Shown here piece by piece: positions 1,781 to 18,466 of a stretch of DNA of 64,000 bases (the first letter of the stretch is position 1; each line of letters opens with the position of its first letter). The stretch is taken from NCBI GenBank assembly GCA_043798935.1, contig JAZDOC010000017.1, forward strand, positions 64,381 through 128,380. The letters are read 5' to 3'. Below the pieces are notes generated by a model. It saw nothing but the letters and a program-made list of their open reading frames with translations, was not told the origin of the DNA and ran no database searches. Made by a program: the position numbers and the translations under genes. This stretch comes from Patescibacteria group bacterium (lineage in GTDB: Bacteria; Patescibacteriota; Patescibacteriia; UBA9570; JAHJKD01).

Positions 1781-4700
1781 ATGACACCTTATGAAGATGA
1801 TAAAATAAAATCAAAGCCTACGCGAATACATGACAGTACTACAAAAGATGGCACTGAAAGAAGGTTTGGCCAAGCTGAACCAGTTCGACCACCGCTTCCT
1901 GAAACATTGCGACCAACTGCAGCCGCAGCCGCAGAGACTCTTGAACATGCCGCCGCCATAGCTGATGGAGTGCCTAAGGATGCTGGCATGTTTGCAATAC
2001 CGGAGGATTTAACTGAAAGCGAAGACGTTGATGATGGCCTTCTCTTTGAGACAACGTTTTTGTCGCCGAACGAAGCGAGGCCACTACAAGCAGGGGTGGC
2101 ATCACAAAGGGAACGGGAAGACGAACCTGCGACAGATCCAAATATTGAAGAGAAAGTAAATGAATCAGAAGAGACACAAGCAGACGCAGAACAACCAGTG
2201 GCAGAAAGAGCCAGAGATGCCCGCCAAGCTATTGGAGATAAATTAATAAAAGTACTTTCATTATTAGAAGGTGATAATTTAAATTCAGTAATTAGCCAGA
2301 TAGAACAAAATAAACCCGATTTTTGGGCTGGCCTTCATGGCCGCGGGCGTGAGGTTAAAGATAAATTAAAAAGATTCGGTGGCGCCAAGCGGATGATTAA
2401 AAATATTATAAGGCGTTTATATGAAACTGTAATAGAGCCACGAAACGAACCAAGTACAGATGCACACTTAAGTGTGATTAATATCAATTTGTTCGACGAT
2501 CAATCTATTATTGCGTTTACTGAGAAAATAACACAATTAGAAGAAGCATTAAATAGCTTAATCACTTCACCAACAAACACAGCCGAAGGCGGCGAATCGA
2601 CAACGGAACAATCGTCTGCCCAAATACCAGCAACAGTGGATTATACAGAAGTAATAGCGAAAATTTTAGACAGTGCAGGAACAATTCATGAAGCAGAGGA
2701 TTTTATTAAAAGAGAGAAATTTTATCGAGAGCAAGCGTTTGTTTATTTATATGATGGCAGGCATGATTCGAGAACAGGAACATGCTTTCATTCCAGTTGT
2801 AATTTTCGTACTGATATTAATTATGATGTCCGTGTTAGGGACTGGCATAATGCTGCACAGAGGGAAAGCCAGCATTGGTGTCTCTTTTCAAATTATGAAC
2901 TGCAAGCCTCAGACAACTATGATTATCGGCTGGAAGCATTTAATTTAAATAAATTATTTGAAGTTTACGGCCATGAGAAAATACATGCTTTAGCAGAGAG
3001 GATTTTCGATAGATTTCATAATTCAGCTAAATATTTTCATGACGGCCAGGAAGCGGCTGATCCTTTTTTACGATCTCCAGGCTGGGTTTACAAAGAGCTG
3101 GTTAAACATTTTGGTGAACTACAAACAAGCAAAAAGGCTGATCCAGCAACAGCTAGGGCCGATGAGCTTCCTAGCATTGAAGAATTATTTTCCGAACAAG
3201 TGCAACAGCAAATGGTTGACCGCGCTTTAGGACAGGAAGTTTATAATAGTAGAACACATTATGGATTGGATGCTGATTTGAAGAAATTAGAAGGTCATGA
3301 AAATTATACAGCTATATCTGCGCAATTTCGAGAAGCTAATGATGGTCAAGATATTAGTGCTCATGGGGTGATATTACAAGAATTAGGAAAGCTGGTCGGT
3401 GAAGCGTCGCAAGAGGTTTATATCGGTAAGCAACTTCAGGGTTTAATAGATTTTTTGCAAGACGATTATAAATTAACACGCTTAGCCCAGGCAATTGAAA
3501 AAAAAGCTAAGGGTGGTTTTTTGGGTCGATTTAATAAAAATCAAGCTAGAATTCTAGAAACTATTAAAAAAGAGGGTGGCGCCATGATCATGCTGCGAAA
3601 TTTGAAAAAGAGCCTGCTTGAAGTGCAAGAGAAAATGAAACAGTTGAACAGAGCTGAAACTAATGATTTTGCCGGCAACATTGCTGAATTAAAAAAGGCT
3701 ATTGGTGCCATGGATGCTTCAGATACAGAAATTAAAAAAAGCTTGATAGTAGTGGTTGACAATCTAGAATATTTGCAAACGTTAAACGAGAAAACCAAGA
3801 AACAAAAAGCCTTAGCTGAATTGCCGCCGGACAATCATAAATATTCGATTTCTGAAAGCCGGCTCCCATCTTCAGATAAAAAACCACCTGCTTTTGCAGT
3901 AAAAATGAGGGATTCATTGGATAGAAACATTAAGTGTTATTATGGTGAGGGTGGCGATCGAGAGCAGATCGGTATAGATTTTACTAGTCGAGCTAAGCAA
4001 TTAATTAAACAGTATGAAAAAACACAACCTAAAATAAAAGAGAATAGAATTGCTTTTGTGCAGAAGCGGAAAGAAAAAGCAAGTGATTTATATGACGCAA
4101 CTTACACACAGTTATTAGAAGAAGAAAATTCTTTAATGAGGGCAATTGATGGTCATTTTGCAGATATTACTTTTCAAACCGGATTGTATCACGCCGATCA
4201 TATGGGTTTAGTGATGAAACAAATGGAAAACAGCCAGCGGCGTTTGCAGGAAGTGCATCGTAAATGGCAGGCATTAGCTAAATTCGATATTGAATCACCA
4301 GAACCAGAACCAGACCAAGAAACAGATGAAGTAAAAAAAAGAGAAAGATTCGAGTCGTTATTTAAGCAAACAGTCGCTTCTCCGCTGGAAGGTGATAATG
4401 AAGACAGAAGAGATGTGGCAGAGGAATTAAGACGTATTGTTGTTGTAAGTCGCGAGCAGGCAGCCTATATTGCGCGAGAGAAAGATAAAATTTATGAACA
4501 AGAAAAAGCTGGCCGCTTAACTAGAGGGCAAGCTAAAAAGGCTATAGATTCTTTGGATCGTTCTGTTTTTACAACCATAGATTTAGAAATAAGATATAAA
4601 GATGTTTTAGAACGCGCATATAGCCATTTGCCGGCTGAAAAACGAAAGTGTGCTGTAGAGGCTGAAATGGCTTACTTAAAAGGCGTGATTCAACAAACAA

Positions 4701-5128
4701 ACAGCGACGTTGAACAAGAAATAATGAGCCAAAGCAAGATGTACCGTGCGAAAAAGAAGTTAGGCATAATATCAGGCGAAGTAGCTTCAGGAGCATGGCG
4801 GCTAGCCAAAAAGCCGTTTGGTTTTGCAGACCGCGTCATTGATGCCGGGCTTGTATCAGGTGGTGTAAAAGCTTGGGGCGTTAAAGAAGCGATAAAAAGA
4901 TCAGGCGCAAAGTTCGAAGATTCGGCTAGAAAAATGTTGAGCGAACAAGGGCCTGTTGTACAAGAAAAAATAGGCAACGCTCTCATTAAAGCAATTGATA
5001 GATTAGCAGAATATTTAAAAAGAAAACCAGCTGAAAATATTGGCAATGAGGAAGGGGCTGAGACTGAGCCATCAACAGAATCAGAGCAACCCAAAAATGA
5101 AGGAGATAATAGTGAACCGCAAGCATAA
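1781..5128 (+). CDS. Large hypothetical protein of 1115 aa, predicted cytoplasmic and coiled-coil rich, with an acidic/Pro-Ala-rich N-terminal region.
   Basis: Uninterrupted 3.3 kb ORF. It has no Walker motifs, no TM segments and no recognisable catalytic signature. The first ~400 nt are locally GC-rich. Confidence 0.55.
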   Translation: MTPYEDDKIKSKPTRIHDSTTKDGTERRFGQAEPVRPPLPETLRPTAAAAAETLEHAAAIADGVPKDAGMFAIPEDLTESEDVDDGLLFETTFLSPNEARPLQAGVASQREREDEPATDPNIEEKVNESEETQADAEQPVAERARDARQAIGDKLIKVLSLLEGDNLNSVISQIEQNKPDFWAGLHGRGREVKDKLKRFGGAKRMIKNIIRRLYETVIEPRNEPSTDAHLSVININLFDDQSIIAFTEKITQLEEALNSLITSPTNTAEGGESTTEQSSAQIPATVDYTEVIAKILDSAGTIHEAEDFIKREKFYREQAFVYLYDGRHDSRTGTCFHSSCNFRTDINYDVRVRDWHNAAQRESQHWCLFSNYELQASDNYDYRLEAFNLNKLFEVYGHEKIHALAERIFDRFHNSAKYFHDGQEAADPFLRSPGWVYKELVKHFGELQTSKKADPATARADELPSIEELFSEQVQQQMVDRALGQEVYNSRTHYGLDADLKKLEGHENYTAISAQFREANDGQDISAHGVILQELGKLVGEASQEVYIGKQLQGLIDFLQDDYKLTRLAQAIEKKAKGGFLGRFNKNQARILETIKKEGGAMIMLRNLKKSLLEVQEKMKQLNRAETNDFAGNIAELKKAIGAMDASDTEIKKSLIVVVDNLEYLQTLNEKTKKQKALAELPPDNHKYSISESRLPSSDKKPPAFAVKMRDSLDRNIKCYYGEGGDREQIGIDFTSRAKQLIKQYEKTQPKIKENRIAFVQKRKEKASDLYDATYTQLLEEENSLMRAIDGHFADITFQTGLYHADHMGLVMKQMENSQRRLQEVHRKWQALAKFDIESPEPEPDQETDEVKKRERFESLFKQTVASPLEGDNEDRRDVAEELRRIVVVSREQAAYIAREKDKIYEQEKAGRLTRGQAKKAIDSLDRSVFTTIDLEIRYKDVLERAYSHLPAEKRKCAVEAEMAYLKGVIQQTNSDVEQEIMSQSKMYRAKKKLGIISGEVASGAWRLAKKPFGFADRVIDAGLVSGGVKAWGVKEAIKRSGAKFEDSARKMLSEQGPVVQEKIGNALIKAIDRLAEYLKRKPAENIGNEEGAETEPSTESEQPKNEGDNSEPQA

Positions 5129-5201
5129 TATGTTATGACCTGGCTTGCCCAGGTCAGAAAAGTGTAAGAGATATCTTGTCTCTACAGATGCATACAACCG
5201 T

Positions 5202-5230
5202 TTGACACAAAAACTAGCTTATGTTATATT
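5202..5230 (+). promoter_or_regulatory. Sigma70-like promoter TTGACA-N17-TATATT upstream of rpsO.
   Basis: TTGACA lies at 5202-5207, followed by a 17-nt spacer and TATATT at 5225-5230. It sits ~95 nt upstream of the rpsO start, with an AAGGAAA Shine-Dalgarno before the ATG. Confidence 0.5.
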
Positions 5231-9321: not shown

Positions 9322-9682
9322 GTACATTTACAAAAGGCAGTGGAGAGAGAAGTGGAGTTAAATAATTAAACACACTTTTTTCTCTGCTGTATGGTATATC
9401 CAGGAAAAAAACAAAAATAAAAACACCTCAACGCCAGCCCTCATTATATATTCTCTTACGAGAATCAGAGGGACAGCGGTATAGCAGAGTATCCCATCGC
9501 TGGGATGACCTATCACTCCTGGTAAATAGGCAGAAAGCACCTTAGTTTTTGAGCAGAAATTCTTTGCATCTTCCCCTCAGGGGAATGTACAAAGTCAGCT
9601 TAAAAGCTTGGGGGCGCACAGAACGTCCATTATCTCTTTCCTTAGTGAAGAGGGGGCGCTCATAGCGCCCCCTCTTTTTTTT
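9322..9682 (+). ncRNA. Candidate structured non-coding RNA of ~360 nt, family unknown, bounded by a promoter and a strong intrinsic terminator.
   Basis: There is no ORF of 60 aa or more on this strand. The local GC is higher than the flanks. Several perfect short hairpins are present: attctc-ttac-gagaat (9450-9465), atccca-tcgc-tgggat (9491-9506) and ttcccc-tca-ggggaa (9571-9585). The 3' end is a 12-bp GC-rich stem plus T8. Confidence 0.25.
9649..9682 (+). terminator. Strong rho-independent terminator.
   Basis: agagggggcgct (9649-9660) pairs with agcgccccctct across a cat loop, followed by tttttttt (9675-9682). Confidence 0.8.
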
Positions 9683-13664: not shown

Positions 13665-14927
13665 TTATAACCAATTCCAAGGATTTTGTTTGGCTCCATT
13701 TTTAATTACCTCAAAGTGCAAATGAGGGCCGGTTGACCAACCAGTAGAGCCTTCCCAACCAATTTGCTGACCCCGGGAAACACTCTGACCATTAGATATT
13801 GAAAAACTAGAGAAATGACCATATAAAGTTTGTAAGCCATTGCCATGATTAATGGTAATATAATTACCATAACCATTGCTTTTGTTTGGAATTACAGTGG
13901 CCACTCCTGATTCGGCCGCATAAATAGGTTTTCCTAAACCACAATTAATATCAATGGCAATATGACCCCAACGGACGCCTTGGCTAATACGACGGCAAGA
14001 TGATGGCCAGTTTAAAGTTCCGGCAGTTACACTGGAGCCGCTACCTGGGGTATATAAACTACCGCTTGAAGATGATCCATGGCCTGAAGAAGGCGTGGAA
14101 ACTGGTTTTGGTGTTGGAGGAGTATATGGCTCACCATCTACTACTAAAATTTCTTGACCGACCGGAATTAATCCATTATCACCTATATTATTAATATCTT
14201 TAGTGGCTTGTTTATCGCCTTTATGTTGAGAAACTATTCTATCAAAAGTATCACCTGAGACTACTTTATGAATAATGCCATTTTTAGGAAGTATTTTTAA
14301 TGTATCACCAACTTTGCTGACGCTTTTAGAATTTAATCCGTTTTCCCACAAAATAGTATTTAATGACAAATCATATTTTTCAGCAATTGTGCTTAGGGTA
14401 TCGCCCTCTTGAATTTCATATTCAATAATTTTAACTCTTTTCTTTGAAACTACATTTTCGAGTAATGCGGCCGAGGCCAGGGTTGATCCTTCATCTAACA
14501 AAATAACACTATCCTCAACATCTATTTTTTCACTTATTTCTGGGATATTAGCGATTACTAATCCATTTGTATCTACATAATTTTTTACTCTTTTACTTTT
14601 ATTCAAATCGGCTTTTACCACTTCCTCTTCTTCACTGCCCAAGTCTAAGCCTAATTTACTTTGAGCGATTTTATATAAATTACTTTTTTTAGCTACATTG
14701 TCTTGGCGTACGTCATTAGCCGAAAGAACATTCGTGCTGGTCACACATAAGGCAATGATCACAATAATCACATTAACTGTATGGCGGTTGTATGCTAAAA
14801 AGCCTAATTTATTTCTAAAAAAGACTGATTTATTAAGACGAGTAGTTATTTTTAAGTATATTTTATAGATTTCAATGACCAATGGTTTTACTGTAAATTT
14901 CCAGATTCCAGAAAATGGTTTAGCCAC
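13665..14927 (-). CDS. LysM-domain M23-family peptidoglycan endopeptidase.
   Basis: It has an N-terminal TM helix and two LysM repeats (DTLSTIAEKYDLSLNTILWEN and DTFDRIVSQH). The M23 motifs are HIAIDI, GYGNYITINHGNGLQTLYGH and GSTGWSTGPHLHFEV. Confidence 0.85.
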   Translation of the reverse strand: MAKPFSGIWKFTVKPLVIEIYKIYLKITTRLNKSVFFRNKLGFLAYNRHTVNVIIVIIALCVTSTNVLSANDVRQDNVAKKSNLYKIAQSKLGLDLGSEEEEVVKADLNKSKRVKNYVDTNGLVIANIPEISEKIDVEDSVILLDEGSTLASAALLENVVSKKRVKIIEYEIQEGDTLSTIAEKYDLSLNTILWENGLNSKSVSKVGDTLKILPKNGIIHKVVSGDTFDRIVSQHKGDKQATKDINNIGDNGLIPVGQEILVVDGEPYTPPTPKPVSTPSSGHGSSSSGSLYTPGSGSSVTAGTLNWPSSCRRISQGVRWGHIAIDINCGLGKPIYAAESGVATVIPNKSNGYGNYITINHGNGLQTLYGHFSSFSISNGQSVSRGQQIGWEGSTGWSTGPHLHFEVIKNGAKQNPWNWL

Positions 14928-15276
14928 TAATAAAACAAAAATTTTTATAAAACGAGCTACAATTTTTAATAATTTTATAAAAGAAAGACTGCATTTTAGT
15001 AATAATTTTGTAAATTGAGTACTAATATGGTTGATCCTTGTTAATAATAGATCGCGCTATTCTTATTTTATAACAGTTTTCTGCTAAGATTAGCTAAAAA
15101 TATTATATTAATGCTTATTAATAGTGCCTCTTTAAATTAGGCAACCAGAACAGCGTATCATGATGAATATACTCAGTCAATGATTTCATCCCCAGTAGGC
15201 CTATTTTTAGGCTAATTTAAGCCATTTTTATTTATTTATTTCCTAATATTAGGTAAGTATTTATTTTTTATATATA

Positions 15277-15308
15277 TTGAAGGCGCGAATACGTATTCGC
15301 GCCTTCAA
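15277..15308. repeat. Perfect 32-bp palindrome (REP-like hairpin) ttgaaggcgcgaatac|gtattcgcgccttcaa.
   Basis: It is self-complementary over 32 bp. A second copy of the core aaggcgcgaatacgtattcgcgccttcaa lies at 15825-15853 inside the downstream RAYT ORF. Confidence 0.85.
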
Positions 15309-15397
15309 TATATATTCACGCGCTCATTTTCATCTTCAATATATATTCACGCGCTCATTTTCATCTTCAATATATATTCACGCGCTCATTTTTCGCG
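15305..15397. repeat. Tandem direct repeat of 3 x 31 bp (tcaatatatattcacgcgctcattttcatct).
   Basis: Three consecutive copies start at 15305, 15336 and 15367. The last is degenerate at its 3' end. The array immediately abuts the REP palindrome. Confidence 0.85.
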
Positions 15398-15475
15398 TTC
15401 TGTTTTTTTAATTAATATAAAAGTTTTAATTATTTATAAATTTATGCTATTTTATTATATAGAGGGCGTTTCTAA

Positions 15476-16042
15476 TTGCAGGTAACGCTTTTTATGTTTC
15501 AAAAAAAATTGCATCACAATTCGCAACCGCGGATTTATGGTCGAAATAAAATTTATTTTTTAACAACCATTACATATCAGAGGTATTCATATTTTGATAA
15601 TGATGTTTTTTGTAATATTTTATGGAATGACATTTTTTATACAAAAAAATTAAAACAATTTCATATATTTGCCTTTGTAATTATCAATAATCATTTGCAT
15701 ATAATAGTGCAACCGTATGGGAGATATAATATTTCCGAGATTATGCAATCATTAAAAATGAATTCATCTCATAATATTAATAAAATAACAAGACAATATT
15801 TTAATAAGCGTATTAATGATAGGAAAGGCGCGAATACGTATTCGCGCCTTCAATTTTCTATAAAAGCAATGAAATTTAGATGGCAACATTCTTTTTATGA
15901 TCACATCATACGTGATCGGAAGGATTTATTGAATCATGTAAATTATATAAAGGATAATCCCTTAAAACATAACTTAATTAAATCAAATGAAAAATATACA
16001 TGGATTTTTATTAATCTAGACAAATTCGTGAAAATTTTATAA
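15476..16042 (+). mobile_element. REP-associated tyrosine transposase (RAYT, IS200/IS605 TnpA-like, Y1 HUH family).
   Basis: 188 aa. It has the HUH motif NHLHIIV and the C-terminal RAYT signature RWQHSFYDHIIRDRKDLLNHVNYIKDNPLKH, with the catalytic Tyr in the YIxxNP context. The cognate palindrome lies upstream and internally. Confidence 0.7.
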
Positions 16043-16054
16043 GATTACGGGAGT

Positions 16055-18466
16055 ATGAGCAAATATCAACCTAAAAAAATAGAATCTAAATGGCAAAAAT
16101 ACTGGCAAGATCATAAATCTTTTTTGGCCGACGACAATTCATCTAAACCAAAATATTATTGTTTGGATATGTTTCCTTATCCATCGGCTCATGGTCTTCA
16201 TGTTGGTCACCCCGAAGGCTATACGGCTACCGATATCATCTCACGCTATAAAAGAATGCAAGGTTTTAATGTTATGCATCCCATGGGTTGGGACGCTTTT
16301 GGCTTGCCGGCCGAAAATTTTGCAATTAAAACCGGAGTCCATCCTAAAAAAACCACCACCGATGCCATTAAAACATTCACTAAACAAATAAAATCTTTAG
16401 GTTTCAGCTACGACTGGGATAGAGAAATAAACACTTCTTCATCAGAATATTATAAATGGACGCAATGGATATTCTTACAATTATATAAAAATGGGTTGGC
16501 GTACAAAAAGAAAGCGTCTGTGAATTGGTGCGAAAGTTGTAAAACAGTTTTGGCTAATGAACAAGTTGCCAATGGAAAATGTGAGCGTTGTCAAAATGAT
16601 GTTATTCAAAAAGATTTAGAGCAATGGTTTTTTAAAACTACTAATTACGCAGAAAGATTGTTAAACGATTTAGAAAATCTTGATTGGCCCGAACCAATTA
16701 AGTTAATGCAGAAAAATTGGATTGGAAAATCTGAGGGATCAGAAATAAAATTTTCAATTTTAGATTCCCAATTTTCAATTAATGTTTTTACTACTCGGGC
16801 CGACACTCTTTATGGCGCTACTTATATGGTGCTAGCGCCCGAACATGAATTAGTTGAAAAATTAAAGGGTCAAATAACTAACTTCACAGAGGTTGAAAAA
16901 TATATTAAACAAGCGCGTGCCAAATCTGATTTACAAAGAACTGAATTACAAAAAGAAAAAACCGGTGTTTGTTTGCAAGGTATTTTAGCTGTAAATCCGG
17001 CTAATAAAAAATCCATTCCAGTGTATATAGCTGATTATGTTTTAGCTTCTTATGGTACCGGAGCCATCATGGCTGTTCCGGCACATGATGAACGCGACTG
17101 GGATTTTGCTAAAAAATATAATATAGAAATAATTAAAATTATTGATAATAATCAGATAGATGAAAAAGTTTATTGTGGCGAAGGTAAACTAATTAATAGT
17201 GCCGAGTTCAATAATATTAATTGGCAATCAGCGAAAAAGAAAATCACGGAAAAAGTTGGTGGGAAAATTACGATTAATTATAAATTGCGCGATTGGCTTA
17301 TTTCTCGACAACGTTATTGGGGTGCGCCGATTCCAATTATTTATTGCGAGAAGTGCGGTGCGGTGGCAGTTCCCGAAGAGCAATTACCGGTTGTGCTTCC
17401 CGAAGATGTAGATTTCAAACCCACTGGCGAATCACCACTCAAATATTCGAAAACTTTTCATGAAGTTTCTTGCCCCAGTTGTGGTGCCACCACGGGCGTG
17501 CGTCGAGAAAACGATACCATGGATACTTTTGTGTGCTCATCTTGGTATTATCTTAGATATTGCGATCCTAAAAACAGTGAAGCGTTTGCCGATAATGATA
17601 AATTAAAAAAATGGCTACCGGTTGATCTTTATGTGGGCGGGGCCGAGCATGCCTGTATGCATTTAATTTACGCCCGCTTCTTTTACAAAGTTTTAAAAGA
17701 TTTAGGTTATATTAATATCGAAGAAAAAATTGATCATAATGAACCATTTTCAAAATTGAAGAATCAGGGAATGATTCTGGGCGAAGATCATCAAAAAATG
17801 TCGAAATCTCGCGGAAATGTAATAAATCCAGACGATGTAGTAAATGAATATGGTGCCGACACCTTGCGTTTATACGAAATGTTTATGGGCGCTTTTGAAG
17901 ATGTGAAACCATGGGACACTAATAGCATAAAAGGAGTGTTTCGTTTTTTAGATAGAGTTTGGAATTTTTATAACATTAATTTTGAAACCGAAACAAACAG
18001 TCGGGAGGTCGATATCATTACTAACCAAACAATTAAAAAAGTAAGTGAAGATTTAGAAAATTTTAAATTTAATACGGCTTTATCGCAGCTAATGATTTGT
18101 TTAAATAAATATTTTGCCGATTTGCCGAATCAATCTAATGCCAAACAGTTTATTAAATTACTTTATCCTTTTGCGCCACACATAGCCAGTGAAATTGCCG
18201 AGCGCTTTTTTTCGGCCGACGCTGATTTCTTTAATTCATGGCCGGAATATAATCCGGCATTTATTATTAACGACAATGTAGAAATTATTATTCAAATAAA
18301 CGGTAAGGTGCGCGATAAATTAATTGTCCCAGCTGGTGATAGCGAGAACCAGAAAAAAATTGAACAGCTGGCTTTAAGCAGTGTAAAAGTAAAGAGTTTT
18401 TTAAATGGGCAGAAACCAAAAAAAATTATTTTTATTAAAGGAAAATTAATGAGTCTTGTGGTCTGA
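16055..18466 (+). CDS. leuS: Leucyl-tRNA synthetase.
   Basis: 803 aa. It has the HIGH-type motif HVGHPEGYTATD, the KMSKS motif KMSKSRGN and class I editing/anticodon-binding architecture. A GGGAG Shine-Dalgarno lies upstream. Confidence 0.95.
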   Translation: MSKYQPKKIESKWQKYWQDHKSFLADDNSSKPKYYCLDMFPYPSAHGLHVGHPEGYTATDIISRYKRMQGFNVMHPMGWDAFGLPAENFAIKTGVHPKKTTTDAIKTFTKQIKSLGFSYDWDREINTSSSEYYKWTQWIFLQLYKNGLAYKKKASVNWCESCKTVLANEQVANGKCERCQNDVIQKDLEQWFFKTTNYAERLLNDLENLDWPEPIKLMQKNWIGKSEGSEIKFSILDSQFSINVFTTRADTLYGATYMVLAPEHELVEKLKGQITNFTEVEKYIKQARAKSDLQRTELQKEKTGVCLQGILAVNPANKKSIPVYIADYVLASYGTGAIMAVPAHDERDWDFAKKYNIEIIKIIDNNQIDEKVYCGEGKLINSAEFNNINWQSAKKKITEKVGGKITINYKLRDWLISRQRYWGAPIPIIYCEKCGAVAVPEEQLPVVLPEDVDFKPTGESPLKYSKTFHEVSCPSCGATTGVRRENDTMDTFVCSSWYYLRYCDPKNSEAFADNDKLKKWLPVDLYVGGAEHACMHLIYARFFYKVLKDLGYINIEEKIDHNEPFSKLKNQGMILGEDHQKMSKSRGNVINPDDVVNEYGADTLRLYEMFMGAFEDVKPWDTNSIKGVFRFLDRVWNFYNINFETETNSREVDIITNQTIKKVSEDLENFKFNTALSQLMICLNKYFADLPNQSNAKQFIKLLYPFAPHIASEIAERFFSADADFFNSWPEYNPAFIINDNVEIIIQINGKVRDKLIVPAGDSENQKKIEQLALSSVKVKSFLNGQKPKKIIFIKGKLMSLVV

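Follow-up and report, generated by a model that had tools for sequence, protein, structure and literature searches.

Analysis of a 64-kb window, the whole stretch of 64,000 nucleotides (nt) under study, from a 129-kb contig of a Patescibacteria metagenome-assembled genome (MAG) identified a gene for a predicted tyrosine transposase of the type associated with repetitive extragenic palindromes (REPs), that is, a REP-associated tyrosine transposase (RAYT) or TnpA_REP. Two copies of a REP accompany this gene, one upstream of it and one in frame within its own open reading frame (ORF). We consider it likely that the locus is a REPtron, a RAYT gene plus its own REPs, in which the in-frame hairpin is ancestral and has been maintained at the level of the nucleic acid.

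The upstream REP is a 46-bp perfect, zero-loop palindrome (15270..15315, assigned to neither strand; arms ATATATATTGAAGGCGCGAATAC and GTATTCGCGCCTTCAATATATAT) whose 28-nt family core is GAAGGCGCGAATACGTATTCGCGCCTTC (15279-15306). It is placed between the RAYT gene and a divergently oriented M23 peptidase gene, approximately 180 nt 5' of the RAYT start codon ATG. A preliminary description of the locus had noted a 32-bp palindrome at 15277-15308, approximately 170 bp upstream of the gene; it was right about the perfect symmetry, but the palindrome is longer than stated there. The REP inside the gene is the 28-nt family element AAAGGCGCGAATACGTATTCGCGCCTTC (15824..15851, + strand). Its perfect palindrome (15825-15850) spans only 26 nt because the left foot is AAAGG and not GAAGG. 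The element is read as K-G-A-N-T-Y-S-R-L (residues 117-125), its last base beginning Q126, and translation of the palindrome plus its flanks gives R-K-G-A-N-T-Y-S-R-L-Q. The two copies have 30 identical nt in common, AAGGCGCGAATACGTATTCGCGCCTTCAAT (15280-15309 and 15825-15854), encoding KGANTYSRLQ in the ORF, and the recurrence of the palindrome core in frame, as first described, was thereby confirmed. With up to three mismatches allowed, the 22-nt core GGCGCGAATACGTATTCGCGCC had exactly two matches in the window (15282-15303 and 15827-15848), and it had matches in none of 100 shuffles.

The RAYT gene (15494..16042, + strand) encodes 182 amino acids (aa) from its ATG; an alternative TTG start is present at 15476. 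The HUH motif NHLHIIV (15692-15700; H73, H75) is followed by a WQ motif (15881-15886) and the catalytic Tyr157 (15944-15946). The earlier identification of the protein as a RAYT was upheld by its score against the NCBIfam model REP_Tyr_transpos (NF047646, 103.7 bits, above the family threshold of 80), by the Pfam Y1_Tnp domain (PF01797, 35.7 bits, cutoff 23) and by a structural match to Escherichia coli TnpA_REP (YafM; PDB 4ER8, chain A). Identity as an IS200/IS605 TnpA was rejected, since the equivalog model NF033573 reached only 24.8 bits, below its cutoff of 55. Pairwise alignment placed Y157 opposite Y115 of 4ER8. By alignment only, W136, Q137, Y141, D142, H143 and R146 correspond to W94, Q95, W99, E100, H101 and R104, the foot-binding residues of the E. 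coli protein given by Quentin, Siguier, Chandler and Fichant (2018; PMC6006769). A word-indexed protein search with the window sequence alone produced no matches; an exhaustive HMMER search identified 2837 homologs, and the window protein was aligned with the 26 best of these (35-50% identity; alignment A1). Every invariant column of this alignment, the catalytic residues included, is kept in the window protein, and on that basis its ORF looks intact. Together, these data indicated that the gene product is a RAYT/TnpA_REP with the predicted activity of the HUH/Y1 single-strand-DNA endonuclease family.

The in-ORF REP falls within a variable linker (residues 100-135; 15773..15880, + strand) between helix alphaC and strand beta4 that is not in E. 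coli TnpA_REP. Residues 21-99 of the window protein align with residues 8-86 of 4ER8 and residues 131-176 with residues 89-132, leaving an extra segment of approximately 29 aa (residues 100-130) at a single point, and the insertion relative to YafM that had been anticipated is therefore real. Its size had been put at 13-15 aa. This is roughly the excess over the NCBIfam profile, in which 159 window residues align to 143 positions, but it is too low against 4ER8, and within the protein's own clade the linker is among the shorter ones (64 aa from the HUH motif to the W, in a clade range of 52-114 aa). An AlphaFold2 model built from the 27-sequence alignment (mean predicted local distance difference test score (pLDDT) 86.5) has helix alphaC at residues 86-114, coil at 115-136 (pLDDT approximately 56-59) and strand beta4 at 137-144; its best match in the PDB is 4ER8_A (template modelling (TM) scores 0.61/0.69, root-mean-square deviation 2.5 Å). 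Nine residues separate the end of the peptide encoded by the REP (residues 117-126) from the motif for foot recognition, WQ..DH..R. Based on this model, the peptide is predicted to occupy a flexible, permissive surface loop, between the HUH and WQ/Tyr motifs as the preliminary description had supposed.

The in-frame palindrome is not confined to the window. Almost every one of the 26 best homologs has the peptide E-G-x5-R-L at the same place in the linker, and it recurs because it is the translation of GAAGGNN...NNCCTTC. To count palindromes at the DNA level we used 80 metagenome loci, obtained with a 10-sequence protein alignment, and five loci obtained by exact-protein look-up; scoring was restricted to the 40 loci whose HUH and WQ motifs share a single ORF, and a palindrome was counted if it was perfect, had arms of at least 9 nt and lay in the alphaC-beta4 linker. 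Such a palindrome was present in 34 of the 40; among the controls, it was present in 17 of 4000 linkers after shuffling and in 4 of 80 conserved-domain segments. The proteins bearing it are 26-47% identical to that of the window, each with a different inner sequence, and the reading phase was the same in 32 of the 33 palindromes examined. The alternative phase, K-A-...-A-F, was found in loci L127 (320-347) and L204 (10333-10360) with the same 28-nt element. This implies that frameshifts in the flanks compensate each other or that the element was re-inserted independently. In a back-translation test, the peptides of 72 of 150 cluster representatives were fully compatible with a 28-nt palindrome, versus 27 of 750 shuffles. 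In addition, tblastn located an in-ORF palindrome at the aligned position of the RAYT homologs L069, L065, L115 and L113. The named sources of the clade are mostly members of the candidate phyla radiation (CPR), namely Falkowbacteria, Kerfeldbacteria, Peregrinibacteria and the Patescibacteria group, with a few others.

These counts bear directly on the origin of the window copy, which had been tentatively described as an unusual event. A recent one-off in-frame invasion of the window RAYT by a dispersed REP would explain why 30 nt are identical in the upstream copy and why the protein has an insertion relative to E. coli TnpA_REP. However, the position, phase and 28-nt geometry recur in dozens of divergent homologs that have inner sequences of their own, and the REP is undispersed within the window, so that we regard such an event as very improbable. 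Nor would an in-frame REP be unprecedented, as such insertions are a hallmark of subclass 2.4 in PMC6006769. The closest relatives (P0004, P0005, L198 and L115) also share an ANTYS/ANIYS core, which indicates vertical descent. Since position and phase are the same in divergent homologs with different inner sequences, the in-ORF REP appears to be an ancestral, clade-wide, inherited feature. The related suggestion that the REP is a dispersed family did not hold within the window, where both copies are at the RAYT locus, but did hold for other CPR genomes: a scan of species-representative genomes for the core GGCGCGAAT-N4-ATTCGCGCC found many copies in CPR genomes (Peribacteria CAZSQL01, Patescibacteria JAKJDW01 and JAHJBZ01, Kerfeldbacteria PEXU01 and the complete Peregrinibacteria genome CP064978) and some elsewhere.

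The anatomy of the element was determined from 32 unique in-ORF palindromes aligned on their centers. Their geometry is fixed, at 14 + 14 nt with zero loop. The foot, positions 14 to 8 from the center, is G-[A/T]-A-G-G-C-G, paired with C-G-C-C-T-[T/A]-C, and is GAAG/CTTC at its ends in the window and most relatives and GTAG/CTAC in L129, L131, L139, L149 and L202. Positions 7 to 1 are lineage-specific, with three to four pair types at each. At positions 3-8 and 10, Watson-Crick pairing was observed in 32 of 32 sequences; for the two positions at the center, the count was 29 of 32. The foot is near-invariant, third codon positions included, with GAA keeping its A in 30 of 32 sequences and GGC its C in 31 of 32. 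The loop around the element is variable, with 34-77 aa from the HUH motif to the palindrome and 7-52 aa from the palindrome to the W. Between the in-ORF copies of L121 and L119, a synonymous change of GGC to GGA is matched by a change of CGC to CTC that replaces Arg with Leu. As the foot is kept at synonymous sites and the inner stem covaries, the conserved object is a nucleic-acid (DNA or RNA) hairpin with its foot and not the peptide.

These alignments also address the idea that the palindrome is incidental to a conserved protein motif, E-G-x5-R-L, or to a double-stranded operator bound by a dimeric regulator. The E-G and R-L residues do recur, and the outer half-sites GAAGGCG/CGCCTTC are conserved. 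Against this, the inner five residues are unconstrained while the 14 nt that underlie them are always self-complementary, L127 and L204 retain the palindrome in the other phase, the element is also found in non-coding flanks, and a dimeric binder of double-stranded DNA would not need the inner symmetry. We judged both versions to be extremely improbable and set them aside, given the symmetry of the inner stem, the use of other reading phases and the presence of copies outside coding sequence.

Comparison of the in-ORF copies with those in the flanks showed that the former is the most constant REP at RAYT loci and that flanking copies are often absent. A flanking REP was present within 150 nt upstream in about a third of the loci and downstream in fewer. 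The window has none downstream of the RAYT, its flanking copy being upstream only and its second copy inside the ORF. The in-ORF copy was the sole family palindrome in L198 (7 kb), L202 and L204 (20 kb each) and several 8-kb metagenome loci. Where both kinds of copy occur, they are identical in the window, L069 and L143, and differ by compensated pairs in L119, L153, L065 and L156. Locus L069, from a complete Peregrinibacteria genome, shares the window architecture, with a 30-nt palindrome approximately 80 nt upstream of the approximate gene start plus an in-ORF REP, and has GATC at the center instead of ACGT.

It is quite possible, if on the doubtful side, that the in-ORF REP is a pure passenger without a role, carried in a tolerant loop and kept symmetrical by mutational mechanisms only, namely template-switch correction of quasipalindromes, conversion of one arm by the other and, now and then, overwriting by other genomic REPs. 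The encoded peptide lies in low-pLDDT coil, and linker length varies across the clade because of the frequent partial or tandem REP duplications (L139, L143, L149, L150, L023 and P0003); the element has also been lost in some relatives (L125, L203 and P0035). The two window copies stay identical for 4 nt beyond the in-ORF palindrome, a sign that sequence was recently copied between these sites. In addition, a passenger is essentially the view taken of subclass 2.4 in PMC6006769, whose authors considered the insertions likely to be of little impact. However, the foot G[A/T]AGGCG is kept at synonymous sites in proteins only 26-47% identical, for which symmetrization alone is insufficient. Flanking REPs are also kept less consistently than the in-ORF copy, which often has no companion within 7-20 kb. 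Because it is so often alone, frequent overwriting from neighboring copies is unlikely, with distant copies a possible source. The synonymous conservation of the foot and the persistence of the element without a neighboring copy argue against a passenger.

A role at the RNA level was considered from the predicted folds and the gene neighborhood. The RAYT gene is flanked by the M23 peptidase gene (13665-14927; MFH0819046) and leuS, encoding LeuRS (16055-18466; MFH0819047), and only 12 nt separate the RAYT stop codon from the leuS start. With this spacing co-transcription is possible, and RAYT and leuS may be co-transcribed with the in-ORF hairpin as an attenuator. The predicted RNA fold of the upstream hairpin is -30.7 kcal/mol (z = -8.1) and that of the in-ORF hairpin -19.9 kcal/mol (z = -4.6). 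The latter is followed by CAATTTTCTA (15825-15860 with the hairpin), the sole terminator-like match in 1.3 kb, 190 nt before leuS. An Rfam scan of 14800-16300 returned no family at threshold, only generic hairpins (MicC, miRNA precursors) far below it.

These observations would suit a selected regulatory hairpin, a GC-rich stem in an AT-rich message that throttles either RAYT production or read-through into leuS, whether by transcription pausing or termination, ribosome stalling, attraction of RNases or binding of the RAYT to its own gene, comparable to the stem-loops that hold down the expression of IS200 tnpA. The strong fold, the terminator-like sequence and the proximity of leuS are in keeping with this, as is the conservation of hairpin and foot independent of flanking REPs; a lowering of RAYT expression by REP hairpins was suggested by Di Nocera et al. 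(2013; PMC3733652). However, T-rich tails are not general, the relatives having a median of approximately 3 T in the 12 nt after the palindrome, and a purely RNA-level role needs neither a RAYT-type foot nor a perfect zero-loop DNA palindrome. We think a selected regulatory hairpin of this sort unlikely. The narrower candidate of a general intrinsic terminator was rejected, as the hairpin is terminator-like in the window yet its T-rich tail is unconserved in relatives.

Based on the above, the reading we prefer remains that of a REPtron with an ancestral in-frame hairpin. Its cognate REP would be a 28-nt, zero-loop "double-foot" hairpin made up of G[A/T]AGGCG and its mirror foot CGCCT[T/A]C with seven lineage-specific bp per arm between them, of which one copy would have resided in frame in the RAYT gene, in the permissive alphaC-beta4 loop, since the ancestor of the clade. 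Selection or maintenance would act on the hairpin and foot, and the E-G-x5-R-L peptide would be a mere by-product displayed on a disordered loop. By analogy with E. coli TnpA_REP, the RAYT may bind, and possibly nick, the in-ORF hairpin while the DNA is single-stranded. The perfection of the hairpin might then be upheld through its ongoing recognition by the REP family, or exchange with that family, together with template-switch correction; a swap of one REP for another would be frame-neutral because the 28-nt length is constant. The likeliest consequences would be autoregulation in cis (or attenuation) of RAYT expression and the assured co-inheritance of enzyme and substrate.

We also offer, more tentatively and as a proposal that is possible but doubtful, that the in-ORF hairpin is a selected, functional cis element of this RAYT clade. 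It would be a site bound or nicked in autoregulation and, equally, a heritable seed for regenerating the REP family, making enzyme and substrate one self-contained replicator. If this speculation is correct, a change in the REP would simultaneously alter the protein surface nearest the bound REP, because the hairpin is translated into the loop beside the foot-recognition motif.

Several points weigh against an ancestral, maintained REPtron at this locus. A generic search of the window for RWAGGCG-N14-CGCCTWY found nothing beyond the two copies at the RAYT, and with one mismatch in the in-ORF foot (AAAGG) and a REP undispersed in the window, the RAYT-REP system is only putatively functional here. 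Six of the 40 homologous loci have no perfect palindrome with arms of 9 nt or more, though the catalytic motifs by which they were found are kept, and the element is wholly absent from the representative protein P0035, so that it must be dispensable for an intact ORF. The window RAYT has no NCBI protein record, as judged from the consecutive accessions of the flanking genes, and its sequence is absent from the protein collection; this may reflect a pseudogene flag or simply an uncalled ORF. Binding, cleavage and regulation by the RAYTs of this clade are activities that we infer, and template switching as a mutational process could, unaided by selection, be enough to produce perfect symmetry.

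Some further features of the window relate to the RAYT locus. Three tandem 31-nt units, CTTCAATATATATTCACGCGCTCATTTTCAT (15303..15395, + strand; Tandem Repeats Finder period 31, 2.9 copies, 100% matches), adjoin the upstream palindrome, and every unit opens with the REP right foot CTTCAAT. The units are probably degenerate derivatives of the REP right arm, and comparable partial right-arm repeats occur in frame in P0003 (RLQ...PRLQ...SRLQ). The GC content of the RAYT ORF is 24.6% (23% without the palindrome), versus 35-36% in the neighboring M23 peptidase and leuS genes. A similar AT shift was found in the relatives L198, L200 and L204, and the low GC may stem from horizontal acquisition or from a relaxation of selection on codons. 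Apart from the REPs, the window has a single strong GC-rich palindrome, AAGAGGGGGCGCTCATAGCGCCCCCTCTT at 9648-9676, an unrelated hairpin with 13-bp arms and a 3-nt loop that is probably an intrinsic terminator.

Related loci showed additional arrangements of the family. In L023 (Peribacteria CAZSQL010000020.1, ~4300-5230, minus strand) the linker holds at least four REP copies in frame (VSANSNSRLQ), and an array lies upstream; a conserved position of this RAYT homolog is occupied by an in-frame TGA (IIRNE*DF), pointing either to a pseudogene or to TGA recoding in the lineage. In L153, arrays of ~20-nt hairpins GCGNGAAAGCGTTTTCNCGC with ~50-150-nt spacing surround the RAYT (58-299 and 4056-4669) and differ mutually by compensated changes, and a second family palindrome (48 nt) is present in the C-terminal part of the ORF. 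A CRISPR-like reading of the 31-nt units, and of the L153 arrays, was considered and ruled out, since the 31-nt units abut without spacers and the L153 hairpins vary among themselves by compensated changes. The distant RAYT-like proteins L176, L182, L192 and L171 (NH[IV]H ... WQ[KR]SFYDH) have in-frame palindromes directly after the HUH strand, with two copies in the ORF and four outside it in L192. Hairpins of the form GGCGCGAAT-N4-ATTCGCGCC with other feet are repeated in non-CPR MAGs (Spirochaetes JAGODF01 and JAGODA01, Verrucomicrobia and Clostridia); some of these are followed by T-runs, and L021 and L105 have identical flanks in different genomes.

For the annotation of such genomes, AT-poor palindromic inserts and variable linkers can lead to genes of this kind being mis-called as pseudogenes or missed. 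A literature search found no paper linking RAYTs with Patescibacteria.

Among known systems, the window RAYT resembles E. coli TnpA_REP in its fold, HUH motif and catalytic Tyr and, by alignment, in its GTAG-binding residues; unlike it, the window protein has the 29-aa linker. The E. coli enzyme recognizes a hairpin plus a tetranucleotide foot in single-stranded DNA, with GTAG bound via the counterpart of the WQ..DH..R motif. Its REP (REP/BIME) forms an imperfect, bulged hairpin that has one GTAG foot only, occurs in hundreds of extragenic copies and, to our knowledge, is never found inside yafM. The window gene and IS200 tnpA are both Y1 HUH transposase genes with strong hairpins that could limit expression, but those of IS200 lie in the 5' leader and left end whereas that of the window lies in the ORF. 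Intragenic REPs and the Rickettsia palindromic elements have been documented (PMC3733652, citing Ogata et al.) and, like the REP described here, are in-frame palindromic repeats tolerated in surface loops. Those elements, however, occupy many unrelated host genes at non-homologous sites, whereas here the host is the gene of the element's own enzyme, with site, phase and symmetry conserved throughout a clade.

The closest parallel is subclass 2.4 (RAYT group 4), for which PMC6006769 describes REPs within tnpA_REP genes as a unique feature. Its authors report signatures NH[IFV]H / WQ / YIxNNP, an insertion in the beta3-alphaC loop, a double-foot REP (5' GT[AG]G, 3' C[TC]AC) and an origin mainly in Cyanobacteria and Bacteroidetes, and they place the alphaC-beta4 loop near the REP-recognition region. 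The window clade agrees with this in having a RAYT with WQ and YI..NP, double-foot perfect palindromes, REPs both flanking the gene and in frame between HUH and Tyr, and a region of variable length derived from short DNA repeats that forms a peripheral loop in the structural model. The signatures of the window (NHLH / WQ / YIKDNP) and of its clade (DH.H / WQ / YI..NP) are also compatible with subclasses 2.5 and 2.7 as listed in Table 1 of that paper.

The two groups differ in the site of the insertion, which is alphaC-beta4 in the window clade (the beta3-alphaC segment of the window RAYT, QPYGRYN, is short), in the foot, which is mostly GAAG/CTTC, in the HUH motif, which is NHLH in the window and DH.H in most of the clade, and in the hosts, which are mostly CPR/Patescibacteria. 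The fixed 28-nt geometry, constant phase and synonymous-site conservation of the foot are not among the features described for subclass 2.4 in the sections of PMC6006769 available. The distant relatives L176, L182 and L192, with palindromes just after the HUH strand, match the published pattern. The phenomenon itself is thus already published for subclass 2.4, and what is new here is a different loop, foot and HUH signature, and CPR hosts. These findings carry what was seen in subclass 2.4 over to another loop and to the ultra-small genomes of the CPR. For the roles of RAYTs and the long-term upkeep of REP families, both of them unsettled, a clade that keeps one substrate hairpin inside the gene of its enzyme offers a compact, testable, single-gene system.

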